A stretch of DNA of 64,000 nt, taken from positions 62,001 through 126,000 of IMG/VR virus record IMGVR_UViG_2850943043_000004. The stretch is one strand, 5' to 3'. The notes below the pieces were generated by a model. It was given only the letters and a program-made list of their open reading frames with translations. It was not told the origin of the DNA and searched no databases. Origin of the DNA: an uncultured virus (IMG/VR IMGVR_UViG_2850943043_000004). Taxonomy: Duplodnaviria; Heunggongvirae; Uroviricota; Caudoviricetes. A program made the translations under genes and the position numbers. Numbering within the stretch: position 1 is the first letter of the stretch; every line of letters begins with the position of its first letter. Shown here piece by piece: positions 7,344-61,406 of this stretch.

Positions 7344-8503
7344 ATGGAGTTAATAAGGATAGCTATGAAGAAAGACTTGGAAAATGACAACTCTTTAATG
7401 AATAAATGGGCAACAGTAGCTGGCCTTAAAAACCCCAATCCTCTTTATGACTTCTTAAACCATGATGGGAAAACATTTAATGAATTTCTTCAATAGTCAA
7501 CATTGTTAAGAGTCAGTATCCAGACCGTGAATATGAATTTATGAAAGATTACTGTTTAAACCTAGATGTAAAGACAAAGGCAGCAAGAAGTGCATTGGAG
7601 TATGCTGATGCAAATATGTTTTTTGAAATAGAGGATGCTTTAATAGATTCAATGATTTCTTGCAGCAATATGAAAAGTAAAGAATATGGAAAAGTGTATA
7701 AAATACATAGAGAACTGTCTAACAGTGTTATTACTGAATTTGAGGCAGTGAAAAGACTCGGTAAATTAAATATAAAAACACCTGAAATGAATTCTTTCTC
7801 AAGACTTTTGCTGCTTTATCATTATTTAAGCACTGGTAACTTTTCTCCGATGGCCCAACTTATAAAACAAATTGACCTAAGTGAGATTTCTGAGAACATG
7901 TACATTAGAAATACATATCAAACAAGAGTTCATGTTCTAATGTCTAATATAAAGCTAAATGAAAATTCATTAGAGGAGTGCAGAGAGTACTCTAAAAAGG
8001 CATTGGAAAGTACAAATATCCTGAGATTTCAGGTTTTCAGCTACTTAACTATTGGCAACTCTCTATTATTTTCGAATTATGAATTGGCTCAAGAAAACTT
8101 TTTAAAAGGGCTAAGCGTTTCTGTTCAAAATGAAAATTACAACATGATTTTCCAACAGGCTTTGTGCTTCTTAAATAATGTATGGCGCAAAGAAAATAAG
8201 TGGATTAATTTTGAATCTGAGTCAATTATGGATTTGCAGGAGCAAGCTCATTGTTTTATCAACTTTAATGAAAATTCCAAAGCAAAAGAAGTTTTGGATA
8301 AACTAGATCTTTTAGTTCACAACGATAATGAGCTTGCAATGCATTATTATTTGAAAGGAAGACTCGAACAAAATAAAGCATGTTTCTATTCTTCAATCGA
8401 GTATTTTAAAAAGTCTAATGACAAATTCCTTATTAGGCTGCCACTGTTAGAACTGCAAAAGATGGGTGAAAATCAAAAACTTTTAGAATTACTTTTACTT
8501 TAA
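7344..8503 (+). CDS. aimR: arbitrium receptor AimR (YopK), SPbeta type; apparent frameshift near 7487
   Basis: N-terminus MELIRIAMKKDLENDNSLMNKWATVAGLKNPNPLYDFLNHDGK joins ORF 7541..8503 (TPR region) if one T is restored. Confidence 0.95.
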
Positions 8504-8516
8504 AGGAGGTGAGACA

Positions 8517-8642
8517 ATGAAAAAACTTATTATGGCTTTAGTTATCTTGGGCGCACTAGGCACTTCTTTCATAAGTGCAGACTCTTCAATCCAACAAGCT
8601 TCAGGTGATTATGAGGTTGCTGGAATGCCACGTGGAGCATAA
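8517..8642 (+). CDS. aimP: arbitrium pro-peptide AimP (YopL); mature peptide GMPRGA
   Basis: MKKLIMALVILGALGTSFISADSSIQQASGDYEVAGMPRGA; AAAGGAGGT RBS. Confidence 0.97.
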   Translation: MKKLIMALVILGALGTSFISADSSIQQASGDYEVAGMPRGA

Positions 8643-29773: not shown

Positions 29774-29853
29774 ATTAAAAAGGTTTTGGGGGTTAAAAAG
29801 TGATTAATATTATTGGGGGATGAGCTAATATGGAAGTTAGAGTCGGAGGCTGA
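29774..29853 (+). CDS. tandem heptapeptide micro-ORFs (I)KKV(L/F)GG, MINIIGG, MEVRVGG
   Basis: 24-nt ORFs 29800..29823 and 29830..29853, each with a G-rich SD; 29774..29796 needs one homopolymer base restored. Confidence 0.55.
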
Positions 29854-29977
29854 TCAACTCAGGAACTGCCATTGTGTGGCTCCTTGACCCTTGTAACTCA
29901 TAAAATGATAATTTTATTCGAATTAAAAAGAGTGCAAATGAAATGCAAAAATAAAAATATAAAAGTTTATAAACATG

Positions 29978-30428: not shown

Positions 30429-31342
30429 ATGACAGAAAACAAAACGGTATTACGTGAAGCATCAAACGTTGTAACACTTGAAGGAACTCTGGCAGAAGTA
30501 AGACACACTGAGTGGAAAAATGGAAATGGACTAAATATTGAATTAGATATTGAGGTTGCACCTAACGAAGTGCATACAGTTAAAGGCTTTTCAAAATATA
30601 AGAAAGCTGATGGTACAGATAATGCTATTGCCAAAGGGTATCAAACTATCATAAGTGATTATAAGTCCATCGCAGAACATGGAAGAGATCAAGCTGATAA
30701 AGTGAGAATCACCCAAGGTAAGATTGGATTAAATGAATATTACTCTCAAGGAGTATTAAAGGCGTACCCACAGCTAACCACCAACTTTGTAAACAGACTG
30801 GATGCTAATGAAGAATTTAATCCTAAAGCTGAATTTGATGTTGAACTGTTTGTTAAAAATGTAACTGAAGAAAAAGTAAAAGGAGAAGAAACAGGAAGAG
30901 TTAATTTAAATGGTTATATCCCTTTGTATGGCGGGAAAGTCATTCCTTTTACATTTGTAGTGACTAAGGAAGGTTCTCAATATGTTGAAAACAATTATGA
31001 AAAAGGATCTACGGTTAATGTCTTCGGAAAGATTATTAATTATAAAGAACAAAAAGTAACAACCAAAACTGCTGCATTTGGAGAAGACAAAAAGAAATCA
31101 CCTCCATTACAAAAAGAGAGTATCTAGTTACAGGTGGGAACGATCCTTATGATGAAGATAGTAAAAATGCTTTTAATCCAGAAGTAATTAAAAAAGCATT
31201 GACTGAAAGAGAGACTTATCTAGAAGGACTTAAGAACGAAAGCAGCAATGAAAACAATAAAAAGTCTGGCTTTGGTGGAAGTGCTCCTAATAACAAGCCT
31301 TCAAAGCCGGTTGAAATTTCAGATGATGATCTCCCTTTCTAA
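30429..31342 (+). CDS. yorF: YorF single-stranded DNA-binding-like protein (frameshifted)
   Basis: Restored C-terminus ends DDDLPF (SSB acidic tail). Confidence 0.75.
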
Positions 31343-31424
31343 AATAAAATAGATCATTAATCTAATACATAACTGGGGTGAGCTCCGACTCACCCATCAA
31401 ATTCAAAATAAAAGGAGAACTATA

Positions 31425-32396
31425 ATGGCAATTGATATTTTCAACCCACAAGTTTCTGTAGTAGCAAAAGGATTAGAAGGAAAAGTTATCACAATCTACG
31501 GTTCTAACAACTTAGGTAAAACTAAGCAAAGCACTCGGATGAAGAAACCGTTATATCTGCCATTCGAAAAAGGATTAAATGCCATTGCCGGTGTCCAATT
31601 CATGCCTATCAATAGTTGGGCTGATTTTAAAAAGGTAAACAAACAGTTAACTAAAAATGCTGAAAAAGCCAAAGAAATGTATCAGACAATCATTGTTGAT
31701 GAAGTAGACGCTTTTGCTAAATATGCGACTAGATATGTATGCGAGCAATATGATGTTGAACGGATTAAAGATGGTAATGATGGGTTTGGCCTTTGGAAAG
31801 AGTACGAAACTGAAGTATGGGAAGAAATCAATAAATTAATTGGCGTAGGATTTACGGTTATCTTTATTGCTCATGCTGCTGAAGACAAAAAAGGCAAAGT
31901 ATATCCGAAGGGGGATAAACGAGTTTTAGCTCCAGTAATTGATAACAGCGATATTGTTCTCTATCTAAGTTCTAATGGTGTTGATGAAGATAGAAAAGTA
32001 ATCAAATCAAGTGCTTGGTTAGCTGAAACTGAAGAGCATTTTGCTCGTAGCCGATTTGATTACATTGACACGTACCTTCCTGAATTTACTGCAGAAAACT
32101 TAGAAAAAGCAATTATTGAGGCAGTCGAAAGACAGGAGCAAGCAGAAGGAATTGTTGCTGTTACATACGAAGAGCAAAAACAAAACAACGCTTCAGAAGA
32201 ACTTGATTTCAATTCATTAATGGATCAAATTAAAGAAATTGGCATGAAGCTTAATGAAGAAGGCCGTTTAGAAGAAGTTAATGAGATTACAGAGAAACAT
32301 TTAGGTAAGGGTGTAAAAGTTACTGAGTGCAGCCGTAAGCAAGTAGGTGTCATGTCTGTAATACTAGATGATCTAAAAGACCTTCTAGCAGAATAA
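31425..32396 (+). CDS. yorG: YorG AAA_24/Sak4-like ATPase
   Basis: YGSNNLGKT, IIVDE, FIAH. Confidence 0.8.
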   Translation: MAIDIFNPQVSVVAKGLEGKVITIYGSNNLGKTKQSTRMKKPLYLPFEKGLNAIAGVQFMPINSWADFKKVNKQLTKNAEKAKEMYQTIIVDEVDAFAKYATRYVCEQYDVERIKDGNDGFGLWKEYETEVWEEINKLIGVGFTVIFIAHAAEDKKGKVYPKGDKRVLAPVIDNSDIVLYLSSNGVDEDRKVIKSSAWLAETEEHFARSRFDYIDTYLPEFTAENLEKAIIEAVERQEQAEGIVAVTYEEQKQNNASEELDFNSLMDQIKEIGMKLNEEGRLEEVNEITEKHLGKGVKVTECSRKQVGVMSVILDDLKDLLAE

Positions 32397-59872: not shown

Positions 59873-60178
59873 ATGGAGAAAATCAATGGCAGGTATAGGA
59901 TTAAAACACCTTGTCCAAAGGGAATTTCAGGATGTGCTGTTTGTCATTATTTATGGATAGACGAAGATGCGTACGACCAGATTTTCGATTGTTATTATGA
60001 TTATTATGGCAAAAAACCAGACCCAGCATCTATTGTTCAAATACATAAACACCTGCCGAAAGATATTCATTTGTTAGCAGAAGAGTGGGGATGGCATGAC
60101 ACAGAGGTCAGAGAAAAAATTTATAAATGGTTGAGAGAAGAGATGATCTGGGTGTTCGGGTTTGGGAAAGGAGTATAA
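59873..60178 (+). CDS. hypothetical protein
   Basis: 101-aa ORF with Cys motif. Confidence 0.55.
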   Translation: MEKINGRYRIKTPCPKGISGCAVCHYLWIDEDAYDQIFDCYYDYYGKKPDPASIVQIHKHLPKDIHLLAEEWGWHDTEVREKIYKWLREEMIWVFGFGKGV

Positions 60179-60204
60179 AAATAGAGGGGATTAACCCTCA
60201 TACA

Positions 60205-60417
60205 TTAATGAAATTGGCCATTCATACTTTGTTGAGCTAAACGTACTAAACGTTTTGTGATCTCTCCACCTACTGATCCGTTTGCTCTACTTGTTGTCTC
60301 AGGCCCTAAGTTCACACCGAACTCAGAAGCAATTTCATACTTCATTTGTTCAAGGGCACCAGCAGCTTGAGGCACAAGTAATTCATTGCTGTTGTTTGAT
60401 CTGTTTTGTTGAGCCAT
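60205..60417 (-). CDS. sspC: alpha/beta-type small acid-soluble spore protein
   Basis: [35 protein letters not shown]; sigma-G-like GTATA-17-CACAATA upstream. Confidence 0.93.
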
Positions 60418-60517
60418 ATGATCATCTCCTAAAGTTGTATGTAAACAAGCTTGTTCAATTGTATTGTGTGGAGATGTTTTGTAAATATACACATTAATTT
60501 AAAGTGAGGGGATTTAA

Positions 60518-60541
60518 ATGTCAATTGGTCATGGAGCATGA
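60518..60541 (+). CDS. heptapeptide micro-ORF MSIGHGA
   Basis: GTGAGGGGA RBS, then ATG TCA ATT GGT CAT GGA GCA TGA. Confidence 0.6.
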   Translation: MSIGHGA

Positions 60542-60575
60542 ATTAACACGTACTTAAACAAAGAAGGGGGATAAA

Positions 60576-61406
60576 ATGAAAATCGATTATGTTTCAGATC
60601 TGCATATTAATCACTGGATACCTTGGGACAATGACCAAATTAAATGGGAAAGGCGAACAAGGGAGATTATTAGAAGGCTGATATCGAATGGAAATGGAGA
60701 GGTATTAATCATTGCCGGTGATTTTACTGAGTGGAATCAACAGACACTGTGGGTACTTGATGAAGTAGCAAAGCAGTATGAAAAGGTTTACTTCACATAT
60801 GGTAATCATGATCTTTATTTACTCAGTAAAAATCAGCAACGAAAATATTCCGATTCATTGGGAAGGGTGAATGATTTAATTCAGAAGGCTACAGACATCA
60901 ATAATGTCACTCCATTAATAAAGTCTACGGATACATACAAAGGGAAAGTCTTTGCAGGAGATGTTATGTGGTATCTTCCAAAAGGAAATGAAGGATGGGA
61001 TTTCTTCAAAGGTGTCTCTAATGATTCAAACTATATCAGCCTTAATGGATACAGCAAAGAAGATGGGGTACGAGCAATGTGGAAAGAATCAATGGGCTGG
61101 TATGACACTCTTGAAAACTCTCACATTGATGTATTTGTCTCACATGTTCCACCTGTTCACAATCCTTATTCTCCGTTTGAGCCTAACAGCTGCTATATGG
61201 TTGATGTCCCGTTCATTAACGCAAAACATTGGGTTTGTGGTCATGATCATTTACAAGCTGAGTTTGACAAAGATGGAACGAGCTTTCACATGAACTGCAT
61301 TGGATATCCATATGACTATGATATGTATCCTAGAGTAAATGAGATACCAGGTAAGCAAGTTGATACGTATAAAACGTTTGAGCTGAAGACATTTGAAATC
61401 AAATGA
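60576..61406 (+). CDS. yotB: metallophosphoesterase YotB
   Basis: SDLH, AGD, GNHD and GHDH motifs. Confidence 0.85.

Follow-up and report, generated by a model that had tools for sequence, protein, structure and literature searches.

Arbitrium is a model for communication between viruses. Recent work describes phages that overhear and manipulate each other via similar secreted peptides (PMC13220667; bioRxiv 10.1101/2025.10.13.681967). Table S2 of the first of these sources (Gallego-del-Sol et al., Cell 2026) lists 26 mature clade-2 arbitrium peptides from 281 systems, which are termed 'proposed' and were not measured. SIGHGA accounts for 9 of these systems, TIGRGG for 5 and ATIGRG for 3, the last of which is written TIGRG in the available rows of Table S1 (PMC13220667). 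As far as those rows extend, the tables place full signal-peptide precursors beside AimR genes in Bacillus subtilis, B. velezensis, B. amyloliquefaciens and B. atrophaeus. A second class that bears on the present locus is that of the leaderless communication peptides (LCPs) of the RopB/Rgg type, found in streptococci and other Firmicutes, which are RRNPP-type ligands encoded directly by tiny leader-free ORFs, according to the available sections of PMC10518010.

The DNA examined here (the window) is a stretch of 64,000 nucleotides taken from an SPbeta-like virus record of 128,697 bases, in which it occupies positions 62001-126000. On its plus strand, at 60518-60541, the sequence ATG TCA ATT GGT CAT GGA GCA TGA encodes M-SIGHGA-stop, and SIGHGA is one of the proposed mature clade-2 AimPs. 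A Shine-Dalgarno-like box, GTGAGGGGA (60504-60512, plus strand), lies 5 nt upstream of the ATG; in relatives the box reads GAGGTGAT or GGGTGAT, and a purine-rich box is present in all 22 records that contain the minigene. The left neighbour is sspC (60205-60417, minus strand), which encodes a small acid-soluble spore protein and is annotated as such in the homologous place of SPBc2. The right neighbour in the window is a yotB-like gene for a metallophosphoesterase of 276 aa (60576-61406, plus strand; Pfam PF00149, E 1.3e-17), and the ribosome-binding box and spacing of the minigene are similar to those of this gene (AGAAGGGGGATAAAATG, start 60576, 58 nt downstream). Because an in-frame TAA (60515-60517, plus strand) directly abuts the minigene ATG, no longer N-terminus or signal peptide is possible in the window allele. 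The sequence-only reading of this DNA had described a Shine-Dalgarno sequence followed by a seven-codon ORF between sspC and yotB, with no signal peptide, and both points hold.

We consider it likely, on comparative grounds, that this ORF is a real and selected minigene, leaderless and receptor-less, which makes the arbitrium signal of a rival phage in the cytoplasm. The comparisons described below support the interpretation first given to the locus, that of a cytoplasmic signal mimic directed against a competitor. A seven-codon ORF is by itself unremarkable in this genome: there are 424 ATG ORFs of 6-7 codons in the 128,697-bp phage genome, among which 28 have an upstream GAGG or GGG box and 3 end in G-A or G-G. 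The minigene is more than a chance ORF because it is conserved in 22 records and because all three of its intact alleles encode Met followed by a listed clade-2 AimP peptide (SIGHGA, TIGRGG or (A)TIGRG; PMC13220667 Tables S1 and S2). A random hexapeptide would coincide with any of the 26 listed entries with a probability of 4e-7, which rises to 1.7e-4 when the 424 ORFs are all taken into account. It had also been suggested that SIGHGA might be found at the C-terminus of aimP products encoded next to aimR homologues, and such genes do exist, both in 9 of the 281 clade-2 systems (PMC13220667 Table S2) and in two loci retrieved here (L252 and L262). The string 'SIGHGA' was not found in the main texts of the papers searched and is present in the supplement of PMC13220667; the same searches, whose range did not extend to the earlier AimP compilation by Stokar-Avihail et al., gave no published description of a leaderless arbitrium minigene of this kind.

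A blastn search of a phage collection returned 24 SPbeta-group records, and 40 distinct sspC-adjacent loci of SPbeta-like phages were compared, using the conserved sspC leader and the minigene ORF itself as anchors. The minigene was detected in 22 of the 40, in the form of MSIGHGA (15 loci), MTIGRG (4), MTIGRGG (2) and a single frameshifted copy (L023, with a one-base deletion, MTIGRGDELKPT). The Goe11 and BUCT082 allele reads ATG TCT ATT GGC CAT GGA GCA TAA, and that of SPbetaL5 reads ATG ACT ATT GGT CGT GGC TAA. The other 18 loci (SPBc2-type, phi3T-type, L021/L026, L016 and L028) are without it, and the minigene is therefore dispensable; in the alignment, a 40-nt stretch containing the entire minigene is missing from SPBc2, SPbetaL1, L4 and L8. 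The left neighbour sspC is constant among carriers and the right neighbour is variable, being yotB or unrelated ORFs, with the yotB-like gene absent from this position in Goe11, BUCT082 and SPbetaL5-type phages. A loose pattern matched at least 119 stretches in a metagenome scan, and among the matches listed the real locus was present only in L087 and L131. The pattern scan of genome contigs gave one SPBc2-type locus, and the minigene pattern occurred in none of 49 species-representative genomes of one genus.

Both phi3T-type and L021/L026-type loci keep the Shine-Dalgarno-like box with other sequence behind it. In the phi3T type (L005 at about 1850-2030, and also L010 and L027), the box is kept and the ATG is replaced by ATT, and an unannotated frame of about 53 codons, with many aromatic and hydrophobic residues, is opened. 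In L021 and L026, both IMG/VR contigs, the same box (GTGAGGGGATTAC) begins a different gene (MDFSSVKEGDV...) about 95 nt past the sspC leader, and the L021 copy of this gene is shortened to 13 codons by a change that L026 does not share.

If the ORF were coding, its arrangement of Shine-Dalgarno box, ATG, short ORF and stop was expected to be kept across SPbeta relatives with synonymous-only variation. The arrangement is kept in 22 records, which form about four haplotype groups and hence represent few independent events, and the window-type and Goe11-type alleles differ by two synonymous changes and by TGA/TAA only. Between the window and BUCT082, 80 of 314 upstream positions differ as compared with 3 of 24 positions in the ORF, where the peptide is unchanged, a modest contrast between ORF and flank (p=0.12). 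Six of the nine substitutions among the 8 nucleotide haplotypes are synonymous by hand count (p=0.017 against 5/18 synonymous sites), a statistic that is likewise modest (p about 0.02) and draws on about four haplotype groups only. The three non-synonymous changes all divide SIGHGA from TIGRG(G).

A different pattern is seen where the peptide differs. L034 (TIGRG) and L040 (SIGHGA) differ at 7 of 300 upstream positions versus 6 of 24 positions in the ORF (Fisher p=1e-4), and L034 and BUCT082 differ at 0 of 22 downstream positions versus 7 of 24 in the ORF (p=0.006). Taken with the comparison of the window and Goe11, these contrasts indicate that the ORF assorts as a small cassette of its own. 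Judged from these alignments, the ORF is conserved among copies that share a peptide, and is swapped for another real peptide within near-identical flanks. The TIGRG allele was derived in situ from TIGRGG by a change of GGA to TGA, which leaves TGA TGA at its end and yields a second real AimP type.

These data may be set against the possibility that the minigene is what remains of a second, ancestral aimP, a decaying 3' end with no present function and with a fortuitous Shine-Dalgarno box and ATG. An aimP end would leave codons such as those of the peptide, all TIGRG(G) aimP genes and minigenes use CGT for Arg, and the absence of the minigene from 18 of 40 loci is consistent with decay; an origin of the minigene from aimP is plausible. 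For comparison, real aimP genes were fetched by pattern, comprising genes for TIGRG (L206, L207, L210, L219 and L220), TIGRGG (L209, L212, L216 and L217) and SIGHGA (L252 and L262). All 11 of these records contain an AimR match, and in L212 the ORF preceding aimP encodes an AimR (PF22871, E 4e-66). SIGHGA is encoded by AGC ATT GGR CAC GGT GCR in aimP as opposed to TCN ATT GGY CAT GGA GCA in the minigene, a difference of 6-7 of 18 nt that is entirely synonymous and includes a switch of Ser codon family. The minigene series uses ACT and TCT for Thr and Ser, related by a first-position change, whereas aimP uses ACA and AGC. Searches for an SIGHGA-aimP pattern with Ser as TCN gave no match, the real genes using AGC, and neither tblastn with the SIGHGA AimP nor megablast with L212 gave a match in the phage collection.

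When the 45-nt flanks of minigenes were compared with those of aimP genes, no homology emerged: of 60 comparisons against shuffles, 2 reached p<0.025. Because the codons differ (Ser AGC versus TCN) and the flanks are not homologous, the minigene is not a piece copied out of aimP, and the same peptides are thus encoded independently in the minigene and in aimP. A relic fits poorly with these differences, which extend to the Ser, Thr, His and Gly codons, and with an ATG that falls exactly at the mature-peptide boundary in 22 of 22 records and is followed by a stop that has been kept or regained (TGA/TAA, or TGA TGA). Nor would it account for three alleles that each encode a different real peptide, with no intermediates seen, and no second AimR remains in any carrier. 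We therefore regard the relic explanation as unlikely and retain the reading of the ORF as a selected minigene.

The arbitrium system of the carrier itself is located elsewhere in the window. The aimR gene (7344-8503, plus strand; Pfam PF22871) is present in two frames, and aimP (8517-8642, plus strand) encodes a signal-peptide precursor of 41 aa ending in GMPRGA, as had been noted from the sequence alone. Relative to an intact copy of 386 aa that is 99% identical (L230), this aimR lacks one T in a T-run near 7484 and is thereby split into parts of 50 aa and 320 aa; the loss may be a genuine frameshift or an error in sequencing the homopolymer. In the window, 52 kb separate the minigene from this aimR. 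Among 19 carrier records, an AimR gene was found in 18, with one AimR-family gene each, at 50-60 kb from the minigene where the distance was measured; a second AimR was found in none of the 19. A search for related loci with AimR reached only close relatives of the GMPRGA type.

The mature AimP of the carrier matches its minigene peptide in none of the 18 carriers with a readable aimP, which bears out the earlier claim that the peptide is mismatched to the phage's own system. This count does not include G013, which gave no aimP, G003, a fragment without aimR, or two metagenome contigs. Seven types of AimP are represented: GMPRGA (the window, G005 and G002), GIVRGA (Goe11, in agreement with the available text of PMC13220667), SASRGA (BUCT082, G001 and G011), SAIRGA (SPbetaL5, G015, G008, G004 and G014), SIIRGA (G010 and G016), GFTVGA (G009) and SPSRGA (G007, G006 and G012).

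Several irregularities were observed in these systems. The G013 locus (L238) contains an AimR-like ORF of 372 aa, and no recognisable aimP was detected behind it in an ORF scan. The AimR genes of SPbetaL5 (W02 90620-91509) and of the TIGRG-type provirus G066 (30546-31444) were each matched in two pieces, with one internal TAG in the latter, and both may be broken.

The lack of correspondence between the two peptides also bears on whether the minigene product could be a self-directed ligand, that is, a non-secreted peptide which cross-reacts with the carrier's own AimR or with another RRNPP-type receptor and so biases the timing of its own lysis-lysogeny decision. Clade-2 AimR receptors bind non-cognate peptides at lower affinity, according to the available text of PMC13220667, and SIGHGA is similar to S-x-x-R-G-A peptides such as SIIRGA and SAIRGA, which would be consistent with such a role. 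However, the same MSIGHGA allele is found in carriers with seven AimP types, and in the window it stands beside a frameshifted aimR. Moreover, position 4, which is H and not R in SIGHGA, is a main contact residue in solved complexes (PMC13220667 Table S4). A self-directed function is accordingly improbable, and a receptor outside the carrier is preferred.

A promoter scan of 60100-60700 gave no sigma-70-like site on the plus strand, and expression of the minigene would therefore have to rely on read-through. The gene upstream (59873-60178) is the likely source of this mRNA, since no plus-strand terminator was found between it and the minigene; the terminator-like hairpin of sspC (60184-60199) was scored on the minus strand only. 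In each of two RNA-seq runs from one study, a single contig spans 60195-61430 with the minigene unchanged, although DNA carry-over is possible in these samples. A third run (X5) gave no contig across 60416-60546, and a fourth (X8) contained a phage with another arrangement. The minigene region is predicted to be unstructured (fold z +0.76, and no alifold consensus structure across 15 haplotypes), and would for that reason be open to ribosomes. A structured RNA was ruled out on the same grounds, together with the absence of matches to Rfam 15 at E<=1 in 60000-60800. Neither the alternative RNA structures nor the fixed downstream gene of a leader peptide or attenuator uORF was found, and the downstream genes differ.

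Shine-Dalgarno-type 5' stabilisers are known in Bacillus. The idea that translation alone matters, with the Shine-Dalgarno box and mini-ORF loading or parking ribosomes near the 5' part of a yot transcript as an mRNA stabiliser or uORF and the peptide being irrelevant, takes some encouragement from such elements and from the conservation of the box in loci without the minigene (ATT for ATG in the phi3T type, another gene in L021/L026), but it is very unlikely, as it leaves unexplained both why three alleles spell real arbitrium peptides and why the window-type and Goe11-type alleles diverge in a purely synonymous manner, and as the downstream gene varies between carriers (yotB or unrelated ORFs) and neither an attenuator-like structure nor an Rfam match is present.

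A few other features of the region were considered and set aside. Derivation of the ORF from a decayed second copy of the start of yotB (ATGAAAATCGATTATG) was ruled out, given that Goe11, BUCT082 and SPbetaL5 have the minigene beside other genes. The region is not a repeated element of the SPBRE type, as the best second match to 60480-60580 anywhere in the window extends over 13 nt. An antisense ORF of 36 aa (60429-60539) ends after 5 codons in the Goe11 type, and a minus-strand promoter candidate, TTGACA-17-TAAATT (60524-60496), is not conserved, its first hexamer being TAGACA or TAGTCA in other alleles.

The AimR/aimP pairs that match the minigene peptides are located on other proviruses, in IMG/VR provirus records of 26-42 kb. 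About a quarter of the TIGRGG record (G070) and of the SIGHGA record (G075) is shared with the window phage, with nucleotide identities of 65-78%; their CheckV completeness values are 20-33%, and each may be a portion of a divergent SPbeta-related phage. For the TIGRG records (G066 and G073), the part shared with the window phage is below 3% of their length. A description of the targets as an unrelated family of small phages thus holds in part, as it fits the TIGRG records and not the TIGRGG and SIGHGA records. No reciprocal minigenes were found in four target records.

Judged from the number shared in contig names, a carrier provirus and a TIGRG(G) provirus occur together in four source genomes, and each of these proviruses has an AimR of its own. 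The pairs are MTIGRG with ATIGRG, which is an exact correspondence, MTIGRG with TIGRGG (twice) and MSIGHGA with TIGRGG, so that the match is exact in one of four. With so few genomes, and with host species as a confounder, this co-residence means only that carrier and target meet.

The following mechanism is proposed. Translation of the minigene from its own Shine-Dalgarno box would give fMet-Ser-Ile-Gly-His-Gly-Ala, from which deformylase and methionine aminopeptidase would strip the Met to leave SIGHGA. It is established that Ser or Thr at position 2 permits removal of Met by this enzymology. SIGHGA would be made inside the cell, where AimR acts, and secretion, processing and re-import by Opp would be bypassed. 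The peptide would then occupy the AimR of a rival in a carrier lysogen or a co-infected cell, and rival aimX would be turned off. A superinfecting rival might thereby be pushed to lysogeny rather than killing the cell, and a co-resident rival prophage might be held dormant while the carrier is induced. Peptide freed at lysis could also reach neighbouring cells. The pay-off that is proposed has experimental footing: Manley et al. (bioRxiv 10.1101/2025.10.13.681967) found that a Goe11 lysogen, through its secreted signal, causes a tenfold rise in polylysogeny of a superinfecting phage with which it cross-talks, and that the emitter benefits.

In a wider formulation, toward which we lean with some reserve, SPbeta-like phages would practise signal forgery. 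A 24-nt cassette next to sspC, with neither leader nor receptor, would spell the exact peptide of temperate rivals that share the host, and an allele series (SIGHGA, TIGRGG and TIGRG) would be swapped or re-evolved within near-identical flanks. The lytic programme of the rival would be silenced intracellularly, and possibly in neighbours after lysis, with further minigenes possible at 29800-29853.

The last region, part of a gap of 310 nt past a yorC-like gene in the window, contains two tandem micro-ORFs. The first is GTG ATT AAT ATT ATT GGG GGA TGA, encoding (M)INIIGG, and the second is ATG GAA GTT AGA GTC GGA GGC TGA, encoding MEVRVGG. The two ORFs are preserved in all 6 of the SPbeta-group phages aligned, with only 3 variable sites, all of which are third-position and synonymous, and they may encode further leaderless peptides. 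Neither peptide was found in Table S2 of PMC13220667 or in the texts of the papers searched. Just 3' of the pair (29860-29885) is a hairpin-like sequence, GGAGCTGCCA...TGGCTCC, which in SPbetaL5 and phi3T reads AGAGCTGCC...GGCTCT, in appearance a compensatory change.

If the proposal is correct, the minigene would provide the first example of one phage deliberately counterfeiting the signal of another, and a seven-codon ORF that is invisible to annotation could be a specificity-bearing weapon. The three alleles and the isolated carrier phages together provide a ready natural experiment on the diversification of the arbitrium code, and could help to settle whether the active TIGRG-type signal has five or six residues.

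Compared with known systems, the minigene is closest in its product to the clade-2 AimP peptides of the SPbeta group. After removal of Met, the product has exactly the sequence of a proposed mature AimP, and SIGHGA, TIGRGG and TIGRG, which are identical to listed peptides, have the penultimate Gly that characterizes the active 5-6 C-terminal residues of AimP. The genes are otherwise dissimilar. An AimP precursor has 38-54 codons with a signal peptide and a pro-region, whereas the minigene has 7 codons and neither of these; aimP is encoded directly downstream of aimR, whereas the minigene lies beside sspC, 52 kb from the aimR of the window (7344-8642 with its aimP). The minigene also has no cognate receptor in the same phage, and its peptide differs from the phage's own AimP.

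In its architecture the minigene resembles the LCPs, as a short leader-free ORF that would encode the active peptide directly. LCP genes, as presented in the available sections of PMC10518010, work with a receptor of their own, in the signalling of the producer itself; in contrast, no cognate RRNPP receptor was found in the same element, none of the 19 carrier records having a second AimR, and the presumed receptor of the minigene peptide is on another phage. In its proposed effect the minigene is like arbitrium cross-talk, in which the peptide of one phage acts on the AimR of another, early lysogeny follows and the emitter gains, as described in the available portions of PMC13220667 and bioRxiv 10.1101/2025.10.13.681967. 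The cross-talk published in those portions uses the emitter's own, similar, secreted peptide, whereas the minigene would be a dedicated extra gene that supplies the exact peptide of the rival and skips secretion.
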